Origin: a virus
Taxonomy: Duplodnaviria > Caudoviricetes
Strand: one strand, 5' to 3'
Virus record (IMG/VR): IMGVR_UViG_3300025168_000010
Location: 1-51,402 of that record
DNA length: 51,402 bases
The notes beneath the pieces are model-generated. The model ran no database searches. It was not told the origin of the DNA and was given only the letters and a program-made list of their open reading frames with translations. Below, one piece after another: positions 128 to 51,402 of this stretch; the first letter of the stretch is position 1; every line of letters begins with the position of its first letter. Position numbers and translations under genes: made by a program.

Positions 128-343
128 CTGGAAACACCTACGAGACTTGTGTGTGGTGCAGGGGTATCACCATTAGACGCTGGTAGGGCGGCACTAAGAG
201 AGGCTTCGACCTCGGTAGGGGGGTTAGATATCTCAAGTAAAACATACGACAGGATAGCGGTGCTGTCCCCAGTAGAGTTCATAGACCCAGACTTAATGAA
301 GTATGTCTGTATAGTTGTATGCCAACCTATTAGTGACCAGTAG
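26..343 (+). CDS. Hypothetical protein (continues the operon of 51096..51311 across the circular junction)
   Basis: 105-aa ORF, GTG start preceded by GGAGAAGGG; its start overlaps the stop of the upstream ORF in the duplicated copy (51301-51311). Confidence 0.55.
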   Translation: MLNKYKAELVEVGVVSNEAVLNLINSLNRGPISTLETPTRLVCGAGVSPLDAGRAALREASTSVGGLDISSKTYDRIAVLSPVEFIDPDLMKYVCIVVCQPISDQ

Positions 344-1091
344 CCTTAAGCAGTGCGGCCTCGGTAAAGCGGCCACGTATCCCGTCCACAACAAGTCCAC
401 CATTCTTTCGTTGGAACATAGTCAGAGCGGTTCGGCTAAGCGTCCCCCATACACCATCAACGGGTATCCCGTAATCCAGTTCGTTCAATGCCATTTGCCA
501 ATCTTCTACTGAAGATAGAGACTTCAGTGCTGGGAGAAGTGAGGTCATGTTGTCGGCTAACGCTGATAATAGATCACCTGGACATTGAGTCGGACTAAAG
601 TTGTGATGTCCCCATAGACTATTAACGGAACAACCAAGCACATTATACAATGACGTAGGTATATACTTGTGCATGGTCTCACCTGTGAGGTGGCTCCATA
701 GTGTTAGCAGTGCGAGTAACTGGGCCATCGGCACTCCCGTATTACCTTCACTTCCGTAGTTACCAGAACATACAATAGCCAAGAAGTTCTTATTAGGTTG
801 TGTGTTTGGTATCGGGACACTGTGACCACCCTGAGAATGAGTGATACTCTCAAGGTCATTCGCCCAGTACACAGTCCCAGTCTTATCTATAAAGAAAGTA
901 TAGAGTAGGCCAGCGCAACCGTCCTTACATACATGGTTAGGTGACACATGATACTTGGCTACGTTCTCAATGTAAGACTCTGAAGCAGTATGGTGTATCA
1001 CTCCACCCTTGATATCCTTTACCTCTCTTCGATTAAACCTTTTAGTCTTATGAGTTGGTAATGAATCTCTTGAGTCTACAAACTTAAACAT
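330..1091 (-). CDS. Endolysin: N-acetylmuramoyl-L-alanine amidase (Amidase_2-like) with C-terminal peptidoglycan-binding domain
   Basis: VIHHTA, YTFFIDKTG, LWGH...TQCPG amidase motifs; C-terminal WQMALNELDYGIPVDGVWG...FQRKNGGLVVDGIRG is the PG_binding_1 pattern. Start moved to ATG 1091 (GGGGA upstream) from the track start at 1274. Confidence 0.85.
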   Translation of the reverse strand: MFKFVDSRDSLPTHKTKRFNRREVKDIKGGVIHHTASESYIENVAKYHVSPNHVCKDGCAGLLYTFFIDKTGTVYWANDLESITHSQGGHSVPIPNTQPNKNFLAIVCSGNYGSEGNTGVPMAQLLALLTLWSHLTGETMHKYIPTSLYNVLGCSVNSLWGHHNFSPTQCPGDLLSALADNMTSLLPALKSLSSVEDWQMALNELDYGIPVDGVWGTLSRTALTMFQRKNGGLVVDGIRGRFTEAALLKATGH

Positions 1092-1209
1092 ATAATCCCC
1101 AATGGTATACATGCGTATAATATAAATAGGGCTGCTGCGCAAGTCGCTTAGGCCAGAGCAAGCCGCGTGAGGCAAACCAGTGTGCGTCGGACTGATTTGC
1201 GGAAATCGT

Positions 1210-1238
1210 TTGACAGCCGATGGCTGCCGCGATACTTG
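1210..1238 (+). promoter_or_regulatory. Putative sigma70-type promoter with overlapping palindrome CAGCC-GAT-GGCTG
   Basis: TTGACA at 1210-1215; weak -10 (TACTTG at 17-nt spacing); palindrome at 1214-1226; upstream of the first early gene. Confidence 0.45.
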
Positions 1239-1286
1239 CCGCTCGTCACGTCGATGTGATGCAACGAATCTCAATCAGGAGAACTT

Positions 1287-5037: not shown

Positions 5038-5173
5038 ACCCCACCTAAACGTTGTACTGCTAGGCACACAGTCTTAGCCTGGAACATTCATCTGAACAAC
5101 TGTTGAATCGTTGACAACAACATTTAGTTTGACTGATGCGCAAGGCCGCGTCGGAGTTGTCGGAATATTTTAA

Positions 5174-5252
5174 CGTCGGTTCGGTCGTCATATAGAACAT
5201 TCATTCTAATGTTTGTTCAAATGTTTCGTCGTCAGTTCGGTCGTCGTATAGA
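5174..5252 (+). repeat. Two 23-nt imperfect direct repeats separated by 33 nt
   Basis: cgtcggttcggtcgtcatataga (5174-5196) and cgtcagttcggtcgtcgtataga (5230-5252), 21/23 identical. Confidence 0.75.
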
Positions 5253-5318: not shown

Positions 5319-5385
5319 GCAGTAACCTTCGCTCCGCTACGGTTCTTTCTTTTGTGTATTAATTAATAATACATTTAACTAGGAG
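5319..5385 (+). promoter_or_regulatory. Cassette-start element, copy 1
   Basis: TAACCTTCGCTCCGCTACGGTT 5323-5344, 10-nt gap, TGTATTAATTAA 5355-5366, ATACATTTA 5369-5377, TAGGAG 5380-5385, ATG 5392. Confidence 0.85.
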
Positions 5386-5391
5386 AGAAGA

Positions 5392-5661
5392 ATGCTAAGC
5401 AAAGAAACCATAGCAATACATGAACCCAATTTGAGTCTATCAGATTACCCTGACCAACTCAAAGTAACAGAGACCGCTGTTGATACAGAGACATACAATA
5501 AGATGAGGTATAAAGCGCGACGTGCTGGCATGTTGCAAGATGTACACGCATCTTATGAGTACTTCGTATCAACAGGTAAGTCACCATCATTAGCAGCCTA
5601 CCTTGCATTAGCAGAGTGGGAACTTGCTACCATCCCGAACCTAAACAAAGGAGATAAGTAA
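5392..5661 (+). CDS. Hypothetical early protein (cassette 1)
   Basis: 89-aa ORF directly after the repeated element; TAATG coupling to the next gene. Confidence 0.7.
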   Translation: MLSKETIAIHEPNLSLSDYPDQLKVTETAVDTETYNKMRYKARRAGMLQDVHASYEYFVSTGKSPSLAAYLALAEWELATIPNLNKGDK

Positions 5662-6143
5662 TGGAAGAAGTCACAGACCTAATGGGAATCACAGGTGAAA
5701 CTACTGTAGAAGAGGAGGTAAAAGTTGAAGTCACAATCGAATACAATGAAGTCAATATATATAAAGATGTAGAAGTTCAAGCAGAAATTCAACTAGGCTG
5801 GGAAGAAGTTAAGGAACACATCCTTGATGGTATTCATTTCAAGGACTACCCAAGTGTACAAATGGTTCTCATGCAATGGGCAGCCGACGTCGCTGTGTCC
5901 TACATGTCATTCATGACAGAAGCGAAAGACCAGGAATACATGAACGTCAAAGGAGAACTGAGAGACACAGTGGCTTCATTCTCTAGGGTTCAAGGACAAC
6001 TACTAGATCTACGACAACAAGTCGTGGGTTCATCACCGTCATTTACACCAGAGGAAGTACTAGAACGCCTCAAGGAAATGACGAACAATTCAGATAAGTA
6101 CGAAGCAATGGTGCTGAGTGCTACACAACAAGACAAGGAGTAA
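5661..6143 (+). CDS. Hypothetical acidic early protein (cassette 1)
   Basis: 160-aa ORF, AAGGAG RBS. Confidence 0.7.
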   Translation: MEEVTDLMGITGETTVEEEVKVEVTIEYNEVNIYKDVEVQAEIQLGWEEVKEHILDGIHFKDYPSVQMVLMQWAADVAVSYMSFMTEAKDQEYMNVKGELRDTVASFSRVQGQLLDLRQQVVGSSPSFTPEEVLERLKEMTNNSDKYEAMVLSATQQDKE

Positions 6144-6146
6144 GAC

Positions 6147-6449
6147 ATGTGGAAATTAAAGACACCCACAAGGGAAGCAATCTTCAATTCATTAAAGCCA
6201 GCATTAGTAGTTGTTGTACAAGAAAAAGAAGAGATGATTACAACAATCAAAATGAATAAGTTCAGCAGCCGTAAAAGTAACTACCTATCATGGGAAGTTA
6301 GTTACATGCTCGACAACGAAACATCTAAAGTGGTAAAAGAACACGCCGACTCTTACAACAGCAGATCATCATACGTTTTTGAAGTAAACGTCCATGATGT
6401 CAGATCGAAGCATGGAATGACAGACGAAAGTCATCCAAAACCAGAGTAA
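6147..6449 (+). CDS. Hypothetical early protein (cassette 1)
   Basis: 100-aa ORF, AAGGAG RBS. Confidence 0.65.
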   Translation: MWKLKTPTREAIFNSLKPALVVVVQEKEEMITTIKMNKFSSRKSNYLSWEVSYMLDNETSKVVKEHADSYNSRSSYVFEVNVHDVRSKHGMTDESHPKPE

Positions 6450-6463
6450 GTTACCAGTGCTTT

Positions 6464-6513
6464 GGACATCGGCTCACGCAGTCGGTGTCCTTTGTTCTGC
6501 TAATTTCAGCAGA
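6464..6513 (+). other. Intercistronic RNA hairpins (weak terminator or processing site)
   Basis: ggacatcggc-tcacgca-gtcggtgtcc followed by tttgtt, then tctgct-aatttc-agcaga. Confidence 0.5.
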
Positions 6514-6540
6514 GAGATAGAAACTAACTAGGAGATAAAC

Positions 6541-7044
6541 ATGTCAGACATCGTAACAGAACTAAACAACTACGTAACAATCCGTTCATTCGAGAATGCT
6601 AAAGGAGAGACAGTCAAGTACATAGCAGGCCCAGACCTTAAGTCAGCCAAGCCTAACAACTTACTACGCGCTATGATTGAAAAAGGAATCACAGCAAAAG
6701 AACTTCTTCAGATGGTAGAGACACCAAAGAAGACAGCAAGTAAAGGGCGAGCAGTTGGTAACGCTGTAGGTATCCAGCCAGTAGTAGACAAACTCAAGTC
6801 ACTACCAGAGAGTAAGCAAATCGTATTGCTATCACGCTTAAGTGAAGAGCAAGCACGACTCGTTGACCTTAACCTACGAGGCAAGAAAGGTTCTAACAGT
6901 GGACCAAAGATGAATCCAGTCAAAGTCCTAAGTACTATACTTAACAGTCTCGGACTTGAGTACCAAGTCACGCCAGACCTGGAGATGATTAAGGTCGGGC
7001 TAGAATCAGACCTTTACTTCGACGACCTACTCGCAGGACTTTAA
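6541..7044 (+). CDS. Hypothetical early protein (cassette 1)
   Basis: 167-aa ORF, TAGGAG RBS, ends FDDLLAGL. Confidence 0.7.
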   Translation: MSDIVTELNNYVTIRSFENAKGETVKYIAGPDLKSAKPNNLLRAMIEKGITAKELLQMVETPKKTASKGRAVGNAVGIQPVVDKLKSLPESKQIVLLSRLSEEQARLVDLNLRGKKGSNSGPKMNPVKVLSTILNSLGLEYQVTPDLEMIKVGLESDLYFDDLLAGL

Positions 7045-7122
7045 GTTGGACTTCCTATGCGGAATCATATCCGCCGTAGTCTTAAGTATCATAGTATCGC
7101 CGTACATTAGAGAGGTAATGAG

Positions 7123-7284
7123 ATGAGTATATCACTAGAGAAAAGCAAGGCATCAGTAGAAAAGAAACGCGCAACCAAAGCAGAGAAGCGACAGGCAAAG
7201 CGCGAAGGTCGTTCCATCAAGCAACAACTAGAGATAGCACATGCAGGATGGTTAGCACAACTGCGAACAATCTCTAAACAATAG
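7123..7284 (+). CDS. Small basic protein (53 aa, not in ORF track)
   Basis: GAGGT upstream; MSISLEKSKASVEKKRATKAEKRQAKREGRSIKQQLEIAHAGWLAQLRTISKQ*, ending just before a terminator. Confidence 0.6.
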   Translation: MSISLEKSKASVEKKRATKAEKRQAKREGRSIKQQLEIAHAGWLAQLRTISKQ

Positions 7285-7297
7285 ACACATAACTAAG

Positions 7298-7332
7298 GGT
7301 CGAGATCAGCAATGGTCTCGGCCTTTTTTTTT
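7298..7332 (+). terminator. Intrinsic terminator ending cassette 1
   Basis: 11-bp stem ggtcgagatca/tggtctcggcc with GCAA loop, then T9. Confidence 0.9.
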
Positions 7333-7336
7333 AACC

Positions 7337-7400
7337 GCAGTAACCTTCGCTCCGCTACGGTTTCATTTTTTTTGTATTAATTAAGATACATTTATAGGAG
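7337..7400 (+). promoter_or_regulatory. Cassette-start element, copy 2
   Basis: Same 22-mer at 7341-7362, 10-nt gap, TGTATTAATTAA 7373-7384, ATACATTTA 7386-7394, TAGGAG 7395-7400, ATG 7407. Confidence 0.85.
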
Positions 7401-7406
7401 TCAATC

Positions 7407-7661
7407 ATGACAACAAAGACAGCAAAGAGAAGAGTAAAAGCAGAACAAACAACAACCCTAACAAACGCAGTAAGAGGACTGGAGTTCACAGTAATCAGAG
7501 GCAACGAGATGGCCACGCTCAAGACAAGAAGCGGGACATACCAACTCAAACAATCAAGTTACGACCGCCGGTTGTACAAAGGATGCGCTAACGCATACGA
7601 TGTAGAGATGAGAATAGAAGCAGGACAGATGGAACTATCATACAAACCAACAGTAAACTAG
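7407..7661 (+). CDS. Hypothetical early protein (cassette 2)
   Basis: 84-aa ORF after the repeated element; extremely A-rich coding strand. Confidence 0.7.
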   Translation: MTTKTAKRRVKAEQTTTLTNAVRGLEFTVIRGNEMATLKTRSGTYQLKQSSYDRRLYKGCANAYDVEMRIEAGQMELSYKPTVN

Positions 7662-7672
7662 GAGATAAGACA

Positions 7673-7894
7673 ATGAAAGATCAAACCAAACCAAGCGCAA
7701 TGACATCACAACCGACCGTCATCGAAGCCTTACACAGTCAACTAGAGGAAGCCAACGACACCCTCAAGCGATGGGAGAACAAAGCGATCACAGACATCGC
7801 AATCGGGAAGCCCAACACAACCGCTTGCCGAATCTGGAACAAAGCAAGCGCAAGGCGCAAAGCAATACTACTCGCCCTAGAAGCAAGGCAGTAA
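7673..7894 (+). CDS. Hypothetical early protein (cassette 2)
   Basis: 73-aa ORF, TAGGAG RBS, ends just before a terminator. Confidence 0.65.
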   Translation: MKDQTKPSAMTSQPTVIEALHSQLEEANDTLKRWENKAITDIAIGKPNTTACRIWNKASARRKAILLALEARQ

Positions 7895-7898
7895 CTGC

Positions 7899-7931
7899 AA
7901 GGCGGGTATCGAAAGGTACCTGCCTTTTTTT
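7899..7931 (+). terminator. Intrinsic terminator ending cassette 2
   Basis: Stem ggcgggtatc/ggtacctgcc with GAAA loop, then T7. Confidence 0.9.
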
Positions 7932-7969
7932 ATGTCAACACATACCGTTAGCAACAAACAACAGAACGA

Positions 7970-8031
7970 TAACCTTCGCTCCGCTACGGTTAATGGTTTT
8001 GTGTATTAATTAAGATACATTTACATAGGAG
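7970..8031 (+). promoter_or_regulatory. Cassette-start element, copy 3
   Basis: Same 22-mer at 7970-7991, 10-nt gap, TGTATTAATTAA 8002-8013, ATACATTTA 8015-8023, TAGGAG 8026-8031, ATG 8038. Confidence 0.85.
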
Positions 8032-8037
8032 CATTCA

Positions 8038-8244
8038 ATGCTTAAATTTAAACTAAACTTCTTACGCCTTAGTCTAAAACAAAAGGGATGGAGCAGCCTC
8101 TCCACTCTCCTTAATGTTTTACCTATAGATCACCGTGGTTTGTTTGGACTTGGAGCACCTCATTGGTACTTCAAAGCCGACTCATACCTAAACAATAAGC
8201 GGTGGAAGGTACAAGATGAAATGTGGGTCTTGCTAGACTCATAA
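8038..8244 (+). CDS. Hypothetical early protein (cassette 3, single gene)
   Basis: 68-aa ORF between the repeated element and a terminator. Confidence 0.65.
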   Translation: MLKFKLNFLRLSLKQKGWSSLSTLLNVLPIDHRGLFGLGAPHWYFKADSYLNNKRWKVQDEMWVLLDS

Positions 8245-8250
8245 GCAATC

Positions 8251-8278
8251 AGCGGCACCAAACGGTGTCGCTTTTTTT
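8251..8278 (+). terminator. Intrinsic terminator ending cassette 3
   Basis: Stem agcggcacc/ggtgtcgct with aaac loop, then T-run. Confidence 0.85.
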
Positions 8279-8912
8279 ATGTCGGCGTGTAACCTTGGCG
8301 CAGTACTTGAAGAGATGTTTGCTTAAGGTAATGAAACGTAATGCGTACTTGAGAGAGTAAGAGATGATGAGAAGAAGAAGGGTATCCAAACCAGAGCAGT
8401 CTATTCCATGTAGTTCAATGGTACTACCAACGCTCATGTACACAAACTCGTAAACTCTTTGTACCTTAACGTCTCCTCCTACCGCTCATTACACTCGATG
8501 CATCGTTCCATTCACTAGGTCGGAGCCTTCATTAGCCGTTAGTTAGCAAGGGTTCCTGCACAACATTGAGTTAGTTATCCCCCCCCGTATCGTATTCTAT
8601 ATATAGAAATATCATCCCCTCAAAAAATTTTTCTGGATACGACATATCGTCTTTTTTTACAGCAATAGCTAGGACTTGTCTCAAGTGATACCTGATGAAA
8701 CGTTGTGACCCTCTATCTTACCTTCTACTCTAGCTTCTCCTATCTAGGGATAGTCGTAGCGAATAGCTTTACCTTAGTAACGTCTCGAAGCTTCGTTATA
8801 AGTAAGTAGGCAAACAAAACATGCACTGTTTCTGTGAATCTGTCAAGGTAGGTTTGACAACTTATTTGTAAATGGGTTACCCGTAGTCCATAATCCACAT
8901 AGAGAGGTCTAA

Positions 8913-27844: not shown

Positions 27845-28387
27845 ATGAGTTGGTCTGGAGCAACAGCAGGTGCAATAACAGGAGCACAAATAGGGTCTGC
27901 AATACTTCCGGGTTGGGGAACCGCTATCGGCGCTGGGCTAGGTGGCTTGGGTGGATGGTTTACGACAAGAAGAACTGGAGCAGAGAAATCACTAGAGGAT
28001 TTCTATGCGCAGTTAGGTCAAGGCATGTCTCCAGAACAGGCTGCACAAGAAAAATCTATTGCAGCAAGTAAGGCAGAAGCAGCAGAGGCAGAGAATAGAG
28101 CGAAACTAATTAAACGTGGTGGAGCCAGCACGAGCGGTATCGCTTCGGCTAATGCACTGCAAGCAGCGCAATTGGCCAGACTCGCTAAGACTGAGGGTGA
28201 AGGCAAACTAGCGAAAGAGCAAGCCGAGCGAAGTTTACAAATGAAAATTGCAGGGATGCAGGGAACGGCTTCTATTGAACAGCAAAAGAGACTGGACAAA
28301 GAAAAGGCTGCGAATCTGCTTCTTACTTCAGATATAGGCACAGATACTTTAAGTACTTTGGGCGAGAACCTTTCACAGATAGGATAA
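27845..28387 (+). CDS. Putative DNA ejection/pilot protein
   Basis: Glycine-zipper N-terminus GATAGAITGAQIGSAILPGWGTAIGAGLGGLGG, then Ala/Gln coiled coil, typical of podoviral internal virion proteins. Confidence 0.65.
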   Translation: MSWSGATAGAITGAQIGSAILPGWGTAIGAGLGGLGGWFTTRRTGAEKSLEDFYAQLGQGMSPEQAAQEKSIAASKAEAAEAENRAKLIKRGGASTSGIASANALQAAQLARLAKTEGEGKLAKEQAERSLQMKIAGMQGTASIEQQKRLDKEKAANLLLTSDIGTDTLSTLGENLSQIG

Positions 28388-28393
28388 CTGACA

Positions 28394-30469
28394 ATGGCTA
28401 CCCCAAAAACAGCAGGCTTTGGCGCAGGTTTATTCGGAAACAGCAAAACCTCTACAAGCCAACCAGGAACGTTTCCTCTAGGTGTTGGTGGCGGCATTGC
28501 TCAGATGATCGCTTCTCGTCGGGAAGGCCAGTATGCCTTCATGTCTCCTGCTCAACAGACTGCAATGCGCAATGAATTAGAGCTGAGTCTAGATGAGTTA
28601 GACAAGGTGGAGCACGAATGGCGGTTGGGTCTAGTTAAAGACAAAGACTCTAAGTGGGACAAGTTGTTCGAACTGTATAAGGCAAAAGCAGATATTGCAA
28701 AGGCTGCTGGCCAGCAGGCGATAATGAAGCAGGGGACTCTAGTGGGTGCGCTCGGCGTGATGGGTGTTGACCCTTTCTCTGCGGCGATAGTGGGTAACGA
28801 TGTGAACACGATTGATGGGGTTCTCAAGCTAACCACGGGAGTAGGCACCGCAATGACAGGACTTATCCCGACGGGAGGGTTTGATAAAGCCGCTGTAAGG
28901 GAGTTCCAGAAGTCAGGCGACAACCGGGCGAAGGCGCAGTGGATTTCCCAAAAGATTGGCAAGCCAATTGAGGCGTTTGCTGATCAGGCTAGAGACTACG
29001 GCAGCAGGATTCAGGTGGCTGGAGGATACGGGAGGCTGGCTACTACAGCGATGGTCCAGAGACAGGTTGGAAATCTGGTAACCAGTGATCTCTCAAAGTT
29101 CCTTCTTAATGCGATGCCAGACAGCACCGTTCAAGAACGGCTAGAAGTACAGCGTATCTTTATGGAAAAGCATGTAAGTAAGGGTAATGCAGACTGGGGC
29201 AAGACGGATACCGATGCTGTCATGAACGATAGAACAGATCTGGATAAGCAAGTAACACAAAAAATTCGTAGCTCCGATTACGTTCATGATTACATGAAAA
29301 GGGCCGGTGGCTTCGATCAAGGGACAGACGATGCCGAAGAACTTGAAAGGATTCTCAATCTCCCTCCGGATGACCCCACTAGCCCCATGAGCGACGTGGT
29401 GCCGCCTGATTACATGGTAAATAGAAGGGCCACTCTTGAGGCCCAGTTAGCCAGACTAGAGTGGAGTGACCCTTACGCAGACCAAGTTATACGTGTCGCT
29501 GAATTGGAAGGCTTTGACCAGTACAAGGCAGCACTAGGAATAAAAGGTACCAGCTACGAGTCAAACCGTAAAGCAGCTATGATCTTGGCTAAAGATCCGG
29601 GAGCAGCAACTGCCGCTTTCAAGTTTTACAAGCAAGCAAAGCTTAATGGTGTTCCTGAAGCAAAACTAGATGTAATGTACCGTCAGTACCTCGTAAAGAG
29701 TGGGGCACCAGAAGGGGGCCTGTTCGGTAAAAAGTTCGACTCGGAAAGTGTCAGACGTGCAACTCTAGCAGGGATGTCACCTAGTGAAGTCACAAGTATC
29801 GGAGCAACCATTGGTAACTATCTAGAGACGGGTGAGTTCCAGTACATAAAGCCTCCTTTTGCTACCAGATACCAAGAGTTCAAAGACTCTTTGATAGAAA
29901 AGTACGCAGACGAAACTAATGCTGAAGCCAAAACACTTCTTATGGAAGTCGATGTTGCTGCTTGGTTGGGTAAGCAAGATGCAGCCGAGCTTGATTCCGA
30001 CGAAGGTGCTGGTGTTATCTCTACAATCGAGAATGAAACCACCAAGGCTGTTCAGTGGCATAACAATATGCGATCTCTAGCCGAAGGCGGCGGGGGAGTA
30101 AGGTTTAAAGACGAGCAAGAACTTCTCTCTGAAGACCTTAAGCACTGGGAGGAAGTATCTGGCGTTGACACCTCTGAAAAAGCAGAGGCTGCTCGGAAGG
30201 CAGCAAGAGCCGTCGCTGCTGACTTGGGTGGTGAACGGCCAGAAGGAGTGATGCCAACGTCAGGGGAAGCACAAGAAGCATCAGAGACATTCGGTGTAGA
30301 GCCTGAACCACCTGTAACTGCTGAAACTGATACTCCAGTAAACAAGGGTGATAGCAAGGCAGAGGCTAAACGTAAGGCTATATCAAGAAACTTAGGCTTG
30401 AGGCCTGTGGTAGACGACTCTGAGGCAGAAGAAGCGAAGAGGCTCAAAATATCTAACAATCTTTTCTAG
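28394..30469 (+). CDS. Putative internal virion/ejection protein
   Basis: 691 aa, largely helical, between the pilot-like gene and the giant gene. Confidence 0.55.
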   Translation: MATPKTAGFGAGLFGNSKTSTSQPGTFPLGVGGGIAQMIASRREGQYAFMSPAQQTAMRNELELSLDELDKVEHEWRLGLVKDKDSKWDKLFELYKAKADIAKAAGQQAIMKQGTLVGALGVMGVDPFSAAIVGNDVNTIDGVLKLTTGVGTAMTGLIPTGGFDKAAVREFQKSGDNRAKAQWISQKIGKPIEAFADQARDYGSRIQVAGGYGRLATTAMVQRQVGNLVTSDLSKFLLNAMPDSTVQERLEVQRIFMEKHVSKGNADWGKTDTDAVMNDRTDLDKQVTQKIRSSDYVHDYMKRAGGFDQGTDDAEELERILNLPPDDPTSPMSDVVPPDYMVNRRATLEAQLARLEWSDPYADQVIRVAELEGFDQYKAALGIKGTSYESNRKAAMILAKDPGAATAAFKFYKQAKLNGVPEAKLDVMYRQYLVKSGAPEGGLFGKKFDSESVRRATLAGMSPSEVTSIGATIGNYLETGEFQYIKPPFATRYQEFKDSLIEKYADETNAEAKTLLMEVDVAAWLGKQDAAELDSDEGAGVISTIENETTKAVQWHNNMRSLAEGGGGVRFKDEQELLSEDLKHWEEVSGVDTSEKAEAARKAARAVAADLGGERPEGVMPTSGEAQEASETFGVEPEPPVTAETDTPVNKGDSKAEAKRKAISRNLGLRPVVDDSEAEEAKRLKISNNLF

Positions 30470-30485
30470 AAGTAAGGACTAAAAA

Positions 30486-31241
30486 ATGGCAGATAAATCA
30501 TTTCCCCACACAATGGCTGACGGGACAGTAGCCAAAGTTACGTTCAAAGGCGATACAGCATTTGTTGATGGCACAAAGATGAATGCGGCTGACTCGGCGA
30601 CGTTGCTTAGTATGTACGCAGAGCCAACTGTTGCATCCGGCCTTTCCCAACGAGCACTATCAGATATAGTCGGACCAGCTATTGCTGAGGCAGCAGAGAG
30701 GGACAAAGGAAAGATCATTGCTCTAAAGAGACTTTACCAGTTTGGCAGTAAGCCGACATACGCTGGGGGCGAAAAGCCGGGGATGTTTTCCGGCGGTGGG
30801 TTGCCTGAGAAATGGGACGCATCTGAAGATCCAAGATTTGCTCGTTACAAGGCGAGGCTGCAAACGGCTGATAACGTCCCCGATTCCATACGATTATTTA
30901 GTGATATGGTTGCCGATAAAAACCCTGCTGTCTCTGCGTTTGCTATGGATCGGTTAGACCTCCTTACCAACATTATCTATCGTGGCGGTAACGAAACCGA
31001 TGGGGTTCCGGGGGTCAGCACTAAAGCAGGGGCCGGTGGCTCCATTATAGGAAACAAAGAATGGTGGACCTCACCCGGAGGTATGCACATAAGCCTTACT
31101 CCAGAAAAAGGTTCTTTGCAGCACAGGGCGGCCTCTGCGCAGCATGGCGCTAAAGGTGCTGATGAGCTTGAGAGGCAGAAAAAGAAAGCAAAAGAACAGT
31201 ACGAAAGCCCAGAACCTGAAAAAGAAACCTACGAACTGTAG
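30486..31241 (+). CDS. Putative internal virion protein
   Basis: 251-aa ORF in the ejection module. Confidence 0.5.
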   Translation: MADKSFPHTMADGTVAKVTFKGDTAFVDGTKMNAADSATLLSMYAEPTVASGLSQRALSDIVGPAIAEAAERDKGKIIALKRLYQFGSKPTYAGGEKPGMFSGGGLPEKWDASEDPRFARYKARLQTADNVPDSIRLFSDMVADKNPAVSAFAMDRLDLLTNIIYRGGNETDGVPGVSTKAGAGGSIIGNKEWWTSPGGMHISLTPEKGSLQHRAASAQHGAKGADELERQKKKAKEQYESPEPEKETYEL

Positions 31242-34200: not shown

Positions 34201-37200
34201 ACAACTCATGGGTGCAAGGCAGCTCTAAAACTAAAATTGGGCAAAGGGAGTTCTTCCCTGGAATGAAGTCTGATGACTTCGATGACCTTGCAAACTCTCT
34301 CATTGAAAGGGAGATTTTATCTTGGAAGGTCTTAGTCCCATCGAGTGAACGAGCAGCGTTTGAGAAGTGGGCCAGCAGAGGCCAAGTCCAAGAAGAAAAC
34401 ATACTAGCCATATTGGATAAAAGGGCACCTATTGTTAGCGCAGGAAGTGAACACTGGCAAGATGCTTTTGGTTTCTACAGCAGGGCTAAAGCATTAGAGC
34501 AAGTGAAGGTAACGGCTAGGAAGTGGGCCTCCTCCACAGATAAAGTCTCTGACATCCAACGACAAGTGCTACCGATTGCGAGTAGGGGGTCCAAGGAGGA
34601 GATGTACCGTGTTGCAGATGCCGCTGTAGCGGAGGGTGCTACCGTCTCAGATAGGTACATTGAACCTTCTCGCTGGCGCAGAAAGCCTAAGCCTAAGCCA
34701 GAGCCAAAGCATGTGCCTGTGCAGGCTATCCCAGATAAAGATTTATATGTCCCAACTCCAGAAGAGTTGGCCGCTGAGTTGGAGTTTGAAACTAATCTTT
34801 TAGCCCTTAGAGACAAGTTTACCAGAGTCTTTGATGACAAGAAAGTAGATAACAGCAAGTTTTTAGAGTCTTTAGGTTTAACAAAGAACGAACTACAAGA
34901 TCTAATGACCGACCTGTATGGTAAAAGCCATTTAAAGTCTTTGGCTGCAAAAGAGACACTGCGGAAAATCTTTAGAGAAAAAGCTGTCATACAGCCTCCT
35001 GGTCTTAGTACCAAAAAAATTGACGTAGACTTTGATCTTATTGCGCAAGACCCAAACCTAAGCGTTGCGGCTGTACAAAAGAAAGTAGGAGAGAGTGCAG
35101 AAATACAAATAGGACGCGCTCTGTTTAGAGATTCAGATTCTACAATTGTAGAAACAACAATACTAACTCCGAGCACCCCGCCTAAAAAGCGTATTACTGA
35201 CAAAGAGTTTATAGAAAAACAGTACAAAATTACGGGTAATCGCAAACTATTCAAATTAGAAAAAGGTGATGAATACCTACCAGACCCAGTACTTGACTTG
35301 CTGGATGAAATCGGAGACGTGCCCGTCTTTGTTCACGACGGTAAGTACCGACTTACTGGGCGTAGTTCGCTTGCACTTGAACATTGGCCCAAACCAAAGC
35401 CAACAGAATCCATATACTATTTCCCGAAACAAGAAGGGCCACCAGGCTATAATTTCCTAAAGGGTGAAGCTACTCCTGTGGCTGGTAGGCCAGTTGACCT
35501 TGGGGTCAAAGATGGTAGAGAATACTTTGTATTCAAACAAGTCTACAATTCCAAATCAAAACAAGGTGCCCTAAAGCAAGGTGACGAGGTAACCGGTCTT
35601 CATGGCGGTATAGACGATATAGAGAAAGGCCCATTAATGGAGTCTGGCTTTTCTGGCGCAGCGAAAGGAGAGGCAGAGGGTGTCCATGTTCGTATCATCC
35701 ATCGTGGGGAGGATCTAGAAGAACAGCTTATGGTTCCTATCCTAAACAAAAAAGAAAAGTTGCAACCGGGATACGGGACCGGAATCCACTACGTGCAAGT
35801 AAGAAGTAAAGAAGAACAGGTTGCAGCAGTAGAAATATCTGGGATGATCAGAGCCGGGAGGGAGCGTCTTGCGAGAAAGCGTTTTGAGAAGGGGCCAAAC
35901 TTTGCGGAGTATCAGAAAGTTACCGGCGAACTAAACGATCAGCGAGTTATCTTACAAAGCAACATACAGAAGAAGATAGATCAGCTAGAGAAAGCTCTCT
36001 CAAAGCTAGAGCGGAGCAGGGCTGGGGCACTAAGAGCAAGCTTGGCTGACCGGCCTGCTATCTATAAACGAATAGATGGTAAAGAAAAAGAGATTAATTT
36101 AAAGCTTAAGCCTCTGCTCGCTAACAAAAGAAAGTTTGTTGAAAAAAAGATAACCCCATTGGAAGGAAGGCTCAGTACGCTTAAGCCGCCTCCAGTTGCC
36201 GCAGGCAAGTCGACAGAAAATGGTGTCCTTCAGGTTGTTGGCCACGAAGTTGAAATTAGCTCTATGCTAGAAAGGCAGTTCTTTGTCTATATGGACAAGA
36301 GCACCAACAACTGGCATGTAGTAGACACTACTACCGGAGCTAGGGTATCACAAGGCCACAACTCTAATAGCGCAGTATCCGCAGCCAACCACCTCATCGA
36401 GGAAGAGGGCAGGATAAGCTACTTCAACAAACTTGATGGAAGCCCTAGTTTGTGGGGCTTTGGAGAAAAGCAGGTCAAAAAGGTCTTCACTGGGAAACCG
36501 GAGTGGCGTGTAAAAGATGTTGCATCAGGTCTTACACGCGGCAAAGGCCCGACTAGAGAAGCAGCGATAGATGCCGCAAAGAATAAAACGAACTCCAAGT
36601 TCGATTCGTATGTAGCCCAAGAACAAGCAAAGCCAAACTACAGGCCAGTGCTTAGAGAAGTTAGCCGTGAAGAGCAGGCCAAACTTCCTTGGCAACTTTA
36701 TCTTGAACAATCAGGCAAGCCCCACGGGAATCTCTGGGGTGGGAAAGTTGCTTTGGCAAGGACGAAAGAGCGAACTGGCAAAGCATTAATGCCTATTACT
36801 AAGGAAAGGATTAAGGAAGCACAAGAACTTGGTGCCACGTTTATACTTGGAAACACCAAGCATCTTGACCGCCAACTTGCTTTGTTCTTAGATGAAATCG
36901 GCGCAAACTACACAGTATACCATGCTGGAGATGTACCAATCGTTACTCGCCCAGTGGCTAGGCTTGAGTCTAAAACTTTGGAAGCGATAGAGTCAGCATC
37001 CCCACGAAGGCCATTCTCTAGGTATCTCCTTGATGAGTTGCGTGTCCCAGAGAAGCCTAAGCGCCCACCTCTAAACGAGTTCCCTGAACCTGTCTCAGCG
37101 TTTAACCCTATGGTGAAGCGCAAGGTTTACCGAGAAGATGGTGGCCAAGTAGTTGATGTTGCCAAGGTGGTAGACGATCTTGACCCTGCGGTTAAATTCA

Positions 37201-40200
37201 AGTTAGAAAAAGCAACTGAAAGAGCAGCAAGTGGAATAGATAAACTGTTGCCTTCCTTCCAAAAAGAGTTCTCAGTCTTTAAGGAAGCCAATATCAAGGA
37301 TATGAATCCTAGATTATACAATACGACCCCTACTCCTGATGGTTTACTTTTCTCCGTATTAGAAACCTTGAAGAAACTTTCTGGTCCAAGTCGCAGGAAT
37401 CCATTCCCCGATATGGACAGTCTTTCCGACCTCGAACTCTTACTCAGAGACCTTGACTCTTTTTCTTCTGGACTAGGGAAACAGTTCAAAGCCAGTGATT
37501 CTTTGTCGAAGAAAATACGAGCCGCCAGTAAGAAACTTAACCAAGTCAAGAACGCTACAGGTGGCAAGAAACATGGGCCATTGGGCCTGTTCCACGACGA
37601 GTTCGTACAGATTTTAAAAGGTCTTACTATTGGTGGCAAGCAAGGCTCCGCAACAATTAAAATTGCACTACGCAAACTACAAAGAAAGTATGGTAAGGAT
37701 CTGAAGTTAGCCCTACCTAGGCATGGAGAAGCAATACGCAGACCATTGGGACCAAGCCTGTTCGATTCAGCATCAGTAGCTCGTAGAATACGTCAACTTG
37801 ATGATGATACCGTCTTGGAGACCCTAGCATCACTAGTTGTAAAAGACGGTATTAGCGATGCTAAGATGAGAGGCTTGCTGAAGAACATTTATAAGAAGTC
37901 TAATGCGCGTAAGACGTTATCGCAGGCTACAGAAGAGACCTTACTAGCAGATATGACAAAGGTTAAGTCCGACCTACTTGAGGTTTCAAGGGTCAAGTTT
38001 GGTGTATCCAGTAAGACTGGAAAGTTTTCAAGAGGCGATATCGCAACGAAGATCTTTGCTGATGTAAGGAAAGAAAACAAACTTATTACCGATAAGCACA
38101 ACAAATTAACCGATGAGTACCTTGGTAAAATGAAGGAACTCCGCACTGCTTTGAATAAGAATATTGAACCTAAGACTATCGGTGACCGAACCAGAAAAGG
38201 TTGGGAGAACAGGCTGTGGAACCAGTTTAGTGCTCTGTCAACAAAGCATGGGCTATCAAACCAAGACCAGTTGTTTGCAGCATTTTCTGTTCTAAGCGAA
38301 ATGCCTCGCAATATCTCACCAGACATGATGAAAAACCTTACAAGCAAGTACCCTAACGTCATTGGCCGACGCTTTGGTGACATAGAGAAAGACCTTGCTC
38401 CTGTAATGGAAGAGTTAGAGAGTCTAATTAAGTTCTATGAACTAGAGTACTCCGATAGAATTTGGGATATTGTCCGTAGCCCAGAGACTATGATGGAGCG
38501 TTGGGGGGTGCTGGACTTTGTTCCGCACACGTTCCATGCTGGGACAGATGAAGTCTCTTTACAGTTAAGTATGGCTGGGAAGTCACAACTCGGAAGCGGT
38601 AAGGGTATACATGAGATGTTCTTCCGTCAGATGGACGCAGCAAAGGGTCGTAAGATCGCTGGCTCCATCAATGAGATCAATGCCTTTAACCATGCAAAAG
38701 AAGGTGCTGTTGACTTGATCAACCTTGAGCCTGCTCTGCTGTGGGGCAGGTATGCACAAGTAAACCATGCTTTAACCAACGATACCTTTATACAAACACT
38801 TATCTCAACGGGCGTTATACGCGGTCTTCGCAGTGGCGATGCCACCATAGCCAAAGACTACGGTATTAGCCTTACTCGTGGGGACGGTCTTGCTAAGACT
38901 GCCGATGAGATTGCGTTGGAACTAGACATGGTGCCTCTCTTTGACCGGTCTGTCCAGACTGAAGAGATGAACAGGTTTATGATGCTCACGCTTGACGATC
39001 TCCTGAACACCTACGCAACGTCTCCCGGAAAGGTTGGACACCAAGAAGTATCAAAAGCTCTTGAGCAAGTTGCTGACTCCCTGCAAGAAGCGTCAAAAGA
39101 AAAGGGTTTCGCTAACTGGATGAACACATCCAAGAATATAAATGCTTTGCGCAAACTTGAGCAGACATCTCTTAGGCTAAGGGCTGCACAGGCGGCAGAG
39201 GGTGCAGACTTATTCAATCCTCGTAAACGTTACGACGAATTACTTAAGCCTGAACTGGCTAATCAAGTAGCAAAGTGGGATGCGACAGAAGGTATAAAAC
39301 TAAACAATGCTCTACCTGATGATGAGTTTAATGCAGCTAGAAAGATAGCGTTATCCAAGTTAGACACGCAGGTCTCACGTAAAATATGGGATGATGTCTC
39401 TGCGGAAATGAACGCACTCCGCTCGAAGTACACTCCGAATGCACCTAAGACACAGGGTATGCATCTGTCAGCATACTATGACCCAAAGGCGGGGCTGTGG
39501 GAAATGTACATGCCAAGGGGTGTCCACCAGAGCATGAAAGAAGTCATTAACATGGACCCTAGATCACATGGGCTTGTCGGTAGAGGATTAGAAAAGTTTA
39601 ATAACTGGTGGAAGACCCGTGTTACCGTCATTGCGATTGCGTTCTCTACACGTAACTGGGGTGCAAACAATGTTTCTATGGCCTTTGATCTCGGCCCTCT
39701 GGGAGTACTTAATCCTAAAACACACATGCAAGGTCTTAAGTTATCCAACGCAGTCCGGTTCTACGACGAGTTTGGCAGTTTAGAAAAAGCATCAAGGGCA
39801 GCAAAGAAAGCCCTCCCTAGCGATGCTACACTCTCAGAAAAAGCAAAGCATGCCGCCTTACAAAGTGGCTTTAGATTCGGTGGGCTGCAAGGTCTACTAG
39901 ACAATGGTGTTCAGTTAACAGACGACCTATGGATGCCTATTGATGAACTAATGGAGCGCATGACTCGTACTGGTGTAGTCAGTCCAGCCTATACCCAAGT
40001 GGTTGACATTAACGCTATGGAACAAGCAATGTCTCACATGCATTTGCATGGTGGTGCTCTTGCTGATGGGACGACAGCCGCTAAACTTAAGAAGTACGCC
40101 TCGAACATTGAGGATGCAGTGCTCGTTACCGTTCCTACCATGATGACTGGCGGTGTGCCTGTCGCTATGTCCAAGAAGGTTGGTGCAGAGTTTGCCCGTG

Positions 40201-48968: not shown

Positions 48969-49122
48969 CTTTTATTTCTCCTTATTGAGATTGTAAGTAT
49001 AATTATAAGTAATAACGTTTCAGTAGTATAAGTACTGAAGTATAAGGTACTGTTGCTACGTTTCAGTATATAGCATAGTAGGTACGAAGTACCGTAGCAA
49101 CGCTTCGTTATGCGAGTGGTTC

Positions 49123-51095: not shown

Positions 51096-51311
51096 ATGCC
51101 GAAGATAGTCAGAACATTCACGGGTTGGCAGTTAATGGATATACAAATGTCTTTGCACATTGGTCTGCTCCCGAACAGACAGAAGCCAGTCCTTTACGCT
51201 ATGGACGAGGACGAAAAGATTACAGCACTCGCTGTGTTCTCAGACGACAAGGCGGTCGCGCTTGCCCGAATGCTCCTAAACAAAGTGGGAGAAGGGAACA
51301 GTGCTCAATAA
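51096..51311 (+). CDS. Hypothetical protein
   Basis: ATG 51096, 71 aa, coupled to the ORF that continues at 26..343. Confidence 0.55.
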   Translation: MPKIVRTFTGWQLMDIQMSLHIGLLPNRQKPVLYAMDEDEKITALAVFSDDKAVALARMLLNKVGEGNSAQ

Positions 51312-51402
51312 ATACAAGGCAGAGTTGGTAGAGGTTGGCGTTGTTTCAAATGAAGCAGTGCTTAACCTAATCAATTCATTAAACCGTGGGCCTATATCTA
51401 CA
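51276..51402 (+). repeat. Terminal direct repeat, right copy
   Basis: Identical to 1-127. Confidence 0.95.

Follow-up and report, generated by a model that had tools for sequence, protein, structure and literature searches.

How does a phage in which no RNA polymerase (RNAP) can be recognised begin to express its first genes? The question is raised by the virus record IMGVR_UViG_3300025168_000010 (Caudoviricetes) of IMG/VR, whose full stretch of 51,402 nt is called the window here. The window is a whole phage genome assembled as a circle, and its exact end overlap of 127 nt (1-127 = 51276-51402) indicates an assembly of ~51,275 nt that is circularly closed or terminally redundant. In its early region, three tandem cassettes of short genes are each opened by the same element, composed of an interrupted inverted repeat of 22 nt (block I), a 10-nt spacer and a second, AT-rich inverted repeat (block II). 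We propose that this element is a structured early promoter module of the short early-gene cassettes of a podovirus-like phage of roughly 51 kb, and we assign this reading a probability of about 0.45.

The 22-mer TAACCTTCGCTCCGCTACGGTT, which constitutes block I, occurs at exactly three sites of the whole window (5323, 7341 and 7970), all on the plus strand, as a preliminary description of this DNA had claimed. No further site was detected in the window even with up to three mismatches, and 100 shuffled sequences did not contain a single match. Block I consists of an outer stem AACC/GGTT, a 3x3 internal loop, an inner stem GC/GC and the loop TCC, which corresponds to GGA on the template strand. 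The template strand of the window copies reads AACCGTAGC-GGA-GCGAAGGTT with G.A and A.G mismatches, letter for letter as previously described. In all three window copies, the 22-mer is followed after exactly 10 nt by TGTATTAATTAA (5355, 7373 and 8002), then by ATACATTTA (5369, 7386 and 8015), TAGGAG and an ATG (5392, 7407 and 8038), which also agrees with that description. TGTATTAATTAA and ATACATTTA are exact triple repeats found nowhere else in the window, and the only 12-mers that occur at least three times in the genome are those of the element.

Relatives were sought by scans of IMG/VR and of JGI/TARA metagenomes that were anchored on neighbouring genes. This revealed a close relative of 51.2 kb (L073), whose anchor protein is 94% identical to that of the window and which is 99.5-99.9% identical to a further contig (L067) across their overlap. 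L073 contains four diverged copies of the element in the same arrangement, two of which sit directly after strong terminators. Copy A reads TAACCTCCAC-TCC-GTTACGGTT, copy B, which starts 8 nt past a terminator T-run, TAGCCTACGC-TCC-GCTACGGCT, copy C TAACCTACGC-TCAC-GCTACGGTT and copy D TAACCTACGC-TCAC-GCTGCGGTT. Copy B is devoid of most of block II and keeps the 22-mer, the spacer and TGT.

In the alignment of all seven copies (window copies 1-3 and L073 copies A-D), two pairs of block I change on both sides: pair 3-21 reads G-C in copy B against A-T in the other six, and pair 9-15 reads A-T in copy A against G-C in the other six. Pairs 2-22, 4-20, 5-19 and 10-14 are constant throughout. The internal-loop bases T6, C8, T16 and C18 are invariant, positions 6-18 and 8-16 being mismatched in every copy, and 7-17 is paired in the window's three copies and unpaired in the other four. 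The second inverted repeat, TGTAT...ATACA, had been noticed before; it is indeed present, is kept in six of the seven copies and covaries as well, with one pair that reads T-A in two copies, T.G in two and C-G in three. Taking block I and the second repeat together, 3 of 15 pairs changed on both sides compared to 0.7 on average in shuffles (9 of 500 reached this number) and the covariation score was 0.165 versus 0.108 (3 of 500 shuffles as high), a control that yields no probability because only two genomes carry the element and the seven copies are few and related. Slid controls showed 0-1 pairs changed on both sides. Without being given the fold, RNAalifold returned both helices, 3 of whose 11 pairs are compensatory, and a null of equally many random substitutions put the chance of compensatory pairs in two copies or more at P ~0.003. 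A structural template found exactly 3+4 sites, all on the plus strand, against a shuffle mean of 0.73 per genome; since it was derived from these same copies, this indicates restriction to the cassettes and adds no independent support.

The template-strand loop is GGA in five copies and GTGA in copies C and D. This one-base insertion is tolerated beside a spacer that measures 10 nt without any indel in all seven copies, and the matched arm changes occur in single copies whose sister copies are unchanged. Both features favour pairing within a strand over a dimer on two half-sites, and the alignment thus supports that the 22-mer pairs within one strand, as a hairpin. The earlier expectation that homologous elements would preserve stem and GNA loop was borne out in part, by the two compensatory stem pairs and by loops that are GGA in five and GTGA in two of the seven copies. 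It did not extend to the heptamer GCTCCGC, for which the element had been likened to the hairpin promoters of phage N4: present in window copies 1-3 and copy B, it is replaced by ACTCCGT in copy A and by GCTCACGC in C and D. The heptamer is lost in three of the four relative copies and is not a conserved feature.

Each cassette ends in a strong plus-strand intrinsic terminator, as had been stated; cassette 1 contains an internal one besides, and these four are the best terminators of the first 14 kb (Table 1). Copy 3 starts 38 nt past the preceding T-run, in accordance with the distance given previously, whereas the 4 nt given for copy 2 are really 8 nt (14 nt past the stem). Only 8 nt separate copy 2 from the preceding T-run, which makes a promoter 5' of the 22-mer unlikely, and block I probably lies outside the transcript. 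The first invariant G 3' of the hairpin (5356, 7374 and 8003; alignment column 42) is the first base of the second helix. It lies ~22 nt from the loop centre and is preceded by a T-tract, and the spacer columns contain no conserved G. Judging from the alignment, this G in block II would be the earliest plausible transcript start, and a start there would place the stem-loop at the 5' end of the mRNA.

A sigma-70-like pair of -35 and -10 hexamers (16-18 nt apart) overlapping the copies upstream of the Shine-Dalgarno (SD) sequence was found in none of the seven copies, and the alignment reveals no candidate -10 that keeps both A-11 and T-7 across all seven. This is in line with the previous claim that a sigma-70 promoter of the TTGACA type is absent. 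A Bacteroidota-type -33/-7 reading, considered by eye, was rejected based on the wrong spacing and the strong SD. Likewise, sigma-54, ECF, LexA-box, RfaH ops and integron attC readings, compared by eye with consensus sequences, do not fit.

Table 1 Coordinates of the element copies, cassettes, terminators and further features in the window.
Feature	Position	Strand	Remarks
Copy 1, block I, 22-nt interrupted inverted repeat	5323..5344	+	exact repeat; pairing backed by L073 covariation
Copy 1, spacer, exactly 10 nt, variable, T-rich 3' end	5345..5354	+	seven-copy alignment without indel, columns 31-40
Copy 1, block II, TGTATTAATTAA..ATACATTTA, holds inverted repeat TGTATTA/TAATACA	5355..5377	+	
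Copy 1, Shine-Dalgarno TAGGAG and ATG of the open reading frame (ORF) 5392..5661	5380..5394	+	
Copy 2	7341..7409	+	22-mer 7341-7362, spacer 7363-7372, block II 7373-7394, TAGGAG 7395-7400, ATG 7407
Copy 3	7970..8040	+	22-mer 7970-7991, spacer 7992-8001, block II 8002-8023, TAGGAG 8026-8031, ATG 8038
Cassette 1 genes	5392..5661, 5661..6143, 6147..6449, 6541..7044, 7123..7284	+	no family; internal terminator 6464-6490
Terminator ending cassette 1	7295..7332	+	stem 7295-7326, T-run to 7332
Cassette 2 genes	7407..7661, 7673..7894	+	no family
Terminator ending cassette 2	7899..7931	+	stem 7899-7926, T-run to 7931
Cassette 3 gene, 68 aa	8038..8244	+	no family
Terminator ending cassette 3	8251..8279	+	stem 8251-8272
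Three cysteine-free proteins, 180, 691 and 251 aa, directly upstream of the giant ORF	27845..31241	+	
Cysteine-free virion-module protein, 3,399 aa	31257..41456	+	
Endolysin	330..1274		

From these observations we infer how the module might operate. Block I would act through intrastrand DNA structure, formed by the 4-bp outer stem, the 3x3 internal loop, the 2-bp inner stem and a loop of 3-4 nt, and the template-strand loop C(GGA)G or C(GTGA)G would take the form of unusually stable DNA mini-hairpins. The rigid, T-rich spacer of 10 nt would fix the distance to block II. Transcription would start at or near the invariant G, leaving the TGTAT...ATACA stem-loop at the mRNA 5' end just before the SD, and the intrinsic terminator would close each cassette. 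The reader might be an activity in or with a cysteine-free giant protein of the virion module, or the host RNAP together with a phage factor.

The proposed role of the loop can be related to what is known about DNA mini-hairpins. The preliminary description named d(GC-GNA-GC) mini-hairpins as unusually stable, and the relevant part of PMC13037366 gives a melting temperature (Tm) of 73 C for d(GCGGAGC). It names GNA as the sole triloops that form the structure, accepts several four-base G..A loops, notes that conventional models fail to predict mini-hairpin stability and cites as natural examples the N4 promoter, the phage G4 origin and ssiA. Six of our seven copies carry on the template strand either GCGGAGC (copy B and the three of the window) or GCGTGAGC (C and D), in which two G-C pairs close a loop of the G..A type. 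These copies follow the rule for d(GCGNAGC) or d(GCGNNAGC) mini-hairpins on the template strand, and going by that source (PMC13037366) they would be stable. On the top strand, the loops TCC and TCAC fall outside this rule, which creates a strand asymmetry like that described for N4.

Several observations weigh against our proposal. The nearest-neighbour DNA energy of the window hairpin is -2.7 kcal/mol (z -0.41), a value that 64 of 200 shuffles reached, and across all seven copies, with -1.6 to -5.0 kcal/mol and z from +0.68 to -1.56, the folds are no better than shuffles. Such an imperfect repeat is expected to extrude poorly from duplex DNA. Three of the nine stem positions are not kept as pairs, two of them never and one only in the window copies. 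Copy A, with ACGGAGT on the template strand, breaks the rule of two G-C pairs, and the loop GTGA has no entry among the loops tabulated in the available part of PMC13037366. The element is known from two genomes only. The more distant relative G001 (TerL 76% identical), in which the giant protein has a homologue of 3,731 aa (31-34% identical), shows no comparable repeat or structure in its early region. Finally, scans of the genome's proteins did not detect an RNAP, a sigma factor or a DNA polymerase.

The same observations bear on other explanations of the element. It is somewhat unlikely, in our view, that the copies are ordinary double-stranded promoters for the host RNAP, comparable to the three tandem early promoters of T7-like phages, with block II as a weak or host-specific -10, the 22-mer as an upstream or -35-like region and the dyad as incidental. 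The lack of a detectable phage RNAP or sigma factor and the canonical intrinsic terminators would fit such a model, block II of some copies offers AT-rich TAnnnT-like hexamers, and the host may have another promoter consensus. It is contradicted by the missing -35/-10 pair at all seven copies, by the lack of a -10 that keeps A-11 and T-7 and by copy B, which dispenses with most of block II; moreover, a linear reading leaves the two compensatory arm changes, the central 1-nt insertion and the rigid spacer unexplained. Quite improbable is a model in which the 22-mer is an operator for a dimeric phage or host regulator that switches a promoter in the AT-rich block. A near-palindrome of ~21 bp with invariant T6, C8, T16 and C18 at a fixed distance from block II is what an operator might look like, but a dimer does not predict matched half-site changes in copies A and B while their sisters keep the old bases, the 1-bp insertion between half-sites in copies C and D would shift the register, and the scanned proteins showed neither a helix-turn-helix nor a repressor family.

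Covariation as such cannot separate RNA from DNA pairing, and the series U-A, U.G, C-G in the second repeat is typical of RNA. The 22-mer could be transcribed and act as an RNA hairpin in processing, stability or antitermination on read-through transcripts. We consider this very improbable: copies 2 and B start 8 nt past T-runs and would be transcribed by read-through only, and the sense loop UCC or UCAC with its C.U and U.C mismatches belongs to the weaker strand. A slimmer chance still is given to the repeats being mainly recombination joints, like the PeSL elements of T4-like phages or attC sites, with promoter activity as a secondary trait. In support of it, PeSLs are described to behave in this way (PMC4122927), and L073 contains one extra cassette enclosed by elements, the flanks of which agree with those on either side of window copy 2. 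However, homologous recombination needs identity and not pairing, the compensatory changes, the fixed spacer and the SD-proximal position would remain unexplained, and an integrase or recombinase specific to such joints was not seen in the genome, where Erf, RuvC and Cas4-like nucleases represent general functions. In addition to their proposed role as promoters, the repeated modules behave like PeSL-type joints for gain and loss of cassettes, as far as the arrangement in the two genomes indicates.

The extra cassette of L073 (L073:15978-16690) comprises copy B, a DUF4326 gene (E 1.3e-20) and a gene for a YspA-related SLOG protein (E 5.9e-14), which are the only annotated cargo of any cassette; none of the eight cassette ORFs of the window could be assigned to a family. 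The earlier interpretation is supported in part; its ideas of pre-early timing, of reading as ssDNA and of anti-defence cargo stay conjectural. The N4 protein gp12 is annotated as DUF4326, too. The window ORF 7673..7894 (73 aa) matches the N-terminal third of a 203-aa ORF in L073 (17032-17643), so that one is truncated or the other extended.

If the element is a promoter, its reader has to be sought. The genome order runs from small plus-strand ORFs, the early genes, through terminase, portal, capsid and virion genes to the 3,399-aa ORF and then to a minus-strand block that encodes primase, RuvC, a Cas4-like nuclease, Erf and DnaB. The giant protein and four of its homologues contain no cysteine, the G001 homologue has one in 3,731 residues and the three proteins encoded directly upstream have none, compared to a cysteine rate of 0.66% elsewhere in the proteome. 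N4 gp50, gp51 and gp52 are devoid of cysteine and gp53 has four, and the accessible part of the LUZ7 paper sees the lack of cysteine as related to passage through the tail. This absence makes it plausible that the giant protein is ejected into the host, and we regard it as a candidate reader or cofactor of the element. The 180-, 691- and 251-aa proteins may be co-ejected and could likewise be tied to the element.

The preliminary description had suggested an injected factor as reader, which found no confirmation: no polymerase, injected or otherwise, was identified in the genome. Searches of PHROG, Pfam and PDB gave no match of the giant protein to the N4 virion RNA polymerase (vRNAP). PF00940 had no match at E<=1; as this model found N4 gp16 and the CRP-7 RNAP in the control and N4 gp50 at only 10.3 bits, its sensitivity is weak and a cryptic domain could have escaped it. 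Aligning the giant protein with N4 gp50 by hhalign yielded a probability of 0.8%, and tblastn against N4 revealed nothing. The motif T/DxxGR has no match in the giant protein, loose patterns for motifs B and C gave isolated matches only, and the sole D.D.D match, DVDFD at residue 1256, lies in the variable centre and is not invariant among the homologues. The N- and C-terminal thirds are conserved and the centre is variable, which is the opposite of N4. Structure prediction was too poor to be used (mean predicted local distance difference test score of 38.3 for aa 2201-3399 and 49.5 for aa 2701-3399). Atlas feature scores of the giant protein against viral clusters reached 0.95-0.96, with LPD38 on 61% of the members of one cluster, and N-terminal leads stayed below 0.9. 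Hidden Markov models (HMMs) do not confirm LPD-type polyvalent domains; Pfam gave nothing, nor did the PF18857 HMM, for which there was no responding control.

Three parts of the giant protein had no match in cultured phages. Among the homologues, two (P0002 and P0003) are 62% and 57% identical to it, and an identical 3,399-aa protein (P0001) is found on two contigs, the longer of which has 96,675 nt and is neither one nor two genome lengths. Searched exhaustively, the central region yielded no more than a mobile domain of ~70 aa (window 36744-36947, aa ~1830-1897), which occurs in the variable centre and in 80-odd proteins of 100 to 5,000 aa of the representative library, many of them giant. 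Pfam assigned it to no family in the 10 matches scanned, one of which bears an unrelated 2OG-FeII domain and DUF7831. The C-terminal ~700 aa (39357-41453) also exist as a stand-alone protein of 732 aa (P0093) and as the C-terminus of 1,141-, 1,540- and 2,272-aa proteins. The 2,272-aa protein is encoded on a 57-kb contig (L165) of a Planctomycetota metagenome-assembled genome, from which no host is deduced. It may be speculated that this giant family (~3,000-3,700 aa, no cultured member) carries or recruits a virion-delivered RNAP that is unrecognisable by sequence and reads interrupted GNA/GNNA template-strand hairpins, an idea we consider unlikely to be correct.

Pattern scans of IMG/VR, five in total, revealed no true copy beyond the relatives described above. 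The exact 22-mer had no match. A search with the arms plus the heptamer gave 38 loci, none of which is followed by block II. With freed stem positions, three loci were recovered, one of them true (the L067 contig) and two unrelated, and the right arm combined with spacer and TGTAT gave one true case among 81 matches examined. The block II scan hit a single, unrelated locus (L060:5761-5783, minus strand), where 27 nt in a divergent intergenic region are identical to block II of copy 1 (TTTG + TGTATTAATTAATAATACATTTA); this is probably a chance AT-rich palindrome. An arm-sharing site at L073:12851 lies within a conserved ORF and was dismissed as chance, and L155 turned out to be unrelated to the window.

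Loci anchored on the exonuclease (L002-L006) belong to another phage group without the element. This exonuclease-sharing group has a repeated motif of its own, TAAACATTCACC (L002:1298, 5348 and 5710; L004:6024; L005:760), after which comes a hairpin that differs in sequence (GCCC-GAAG-GGGC, GCCCCA-TGA-TGGGGC or GTCT-AAGA-AGAC) and sits between a stop codon and the next SD.

Cultured phages gave no blastn match for the cassette region and only distant matches for TerL (<=25% identity). The best of these, roseophage CRP-7 (25%), was set aside as a comparable relative, as it has its own T7-like RNAP and a different layout. Directly 5' of cassette 1, a non-coding stretch of 435 nt contains two tandem repeats with 56-nt spacing (5157-5252; ...GTTCGGTCGTC[A/G]TATAGA). 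The last cassette is followed by a long non-coding region (8444-8912) with a C8 run and an A6T5 tract, possibly an origin, a site of packaging or an end of the genome; G001 has a similar region with a C-run and an A/T-tract after its last early terminator (L018:13142-13400). The divergent intergenic region between the replication block and the plus-strand genes (48969-49122) carries the nested palindromes GTTGCTACG...CGTAGCAAC and CAGTA...TACTG and is possibly a regulatory or origin region.

Promoters that are recognised in a folded single-stranded form are, as far as is known, almost confined to one phage family, and a limited literature search found no report of hairpin promoters outside the Schitoviridae. 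Here, pairing appears to be preserved within a promoter-like element in an unrelated marine phage lineage without a recognisable RNAP. If confirmed, either hairpin promoters arose more than once, or the cysteine-free internal virion proteins of uncultured podophages, large proteins that are widespread in these phages, hide transcription machinery. Should such a hidden virion RNAP exist, it would add one more independent class to the injected transcription machineries and represent the first hairpin-promoter system beyond the Schitoviridae. The element offers a short, testable piece of DNA (22 + 10 + ~20 nt) for how such phages start expression, and it may extend PeSL-like cassette exchange beyond the T4-like phages.

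Among known systems, the early promoters of N4 are the natural reference. Their non-template strands read GTTGC-TTC-GCAAC, GAAGC-TCC-GCTTC and AGCTGC-TCC-GCAGCT, each followed by TT(A/T)TGG (NC_008720), and the P2 core that the preliminary description cited proved right, P2 and P3 having GC-TCC-GC on that strand. Our element resembles them in a threefold tandem arrangement within an early region of small genes, in units that end in a hairpin and T-run, in an inverted repeat on a 3-nt loop with GGA on the template strand, in a GC-TCC-GC core that is the same as in P2 and P3, and in a giant virion protein free of cysteine like gp50, gp51 and gp52. The chance of either N4 heptamer in this orientation within a random 22-mer is P ~0.002. 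In contrast, the N4 stems are perfect and of 5-7 bp, and here 2 bp are followed by a 3x3 internal loop and then 4 bp. An uninterrupted stem of 4-7 bp adjoining the loop, as is typical for N4, is absent: alignment columns 13-26 and 15-24 are unpaired in all seven copies and 14-25 in four. The part of the N4 review used here describes recognition by -11A/G, -10G, -8G, +1C and an A-tract as ruler, with the start 11 nt from the loop centre. The template base -8G is kept in six of our seven copies (A in copy A) and the loop GGA in five, the numbering being ambiguous for GTGA loops. A conserved G start is missing both at the 11 nt from the loop centre seen in N4, where no TTTT-G occurs, and at the 13-14 nt of LUZ7. 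Proteins homologous to those of N4 and an RNAPII homologue were not found, and the genome measures 51 kb versus 70 kb. As several defining features are absent, the element does not belong to the N4-type promoters.

The hairpin promoters of LUZ7, which according to the section of PMC9163698 considered here were mapped by ONT-cappable-seq, have stems of at least 4 bp, the middle ones with loops of 3-4 nt and 13-15 nt to a G start. The variation between 3- and 4-nt loops is shared with our element; LUZ7 hairpins differ in being uninterrupted and GC-rich, and the polymerases that read them are encoded by LUZ7. For delivery of a polymerase by the virion, crAss-like gp66 and the vRNAP of Thermus phage P23-45 provide examples in the excerpted preprints (bioRxiv 2020.03.07.982082 and 2022.12.01.518664), in which a large virion protein brings the polymerase for the first-entering genes. 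In the P23-45 group, the pre-early motif is described only for relatives with a virion RNAP, and the P23-45 vRNAP is fused to the tape measure protein. Both polymerases have the two-barrel DxDxD catalytic motif, of which the giant protein has no convincing version, and the P23-45 pre-early promoters are an AT-rich linear motif and the gp66 early transcripts lack a common motif in these texts, unlike the structured element here. StenR_269 and the Zobellviridae (PMC10747016, in part) are similar in having a huge, cysteine-free, mostly alpha-helical protein with low-confidence models, and in its place in the structural module of a podophage without a separate RNAP gene. From these features alone, the authors of that report guessed a vRNAP role. 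The portion of that report available gives no promoter evidence, and the window protein differs in having no sequence match in cultured phages.

With the PeSLs of T4-like phages, as presented in the available part of PMC4122927, the element shares the order of stem-loop or terminator, promoter, SD and ATG between ORFans, the plastic region and the position at indel boundaries. The layout of terminator, SD and ATG and the indel-boundary position are both found in our genomes, and the sigma-70 -35/N17/-10 boxes that characterise PeSLs are absent. The stem-loop of a PeSL is moreover the upstream terminator and not a covarying hairpin inside the promoter. Set beside all these systems, the element would follow a logic like that of the N4 hairpin promoters with a different geometry.

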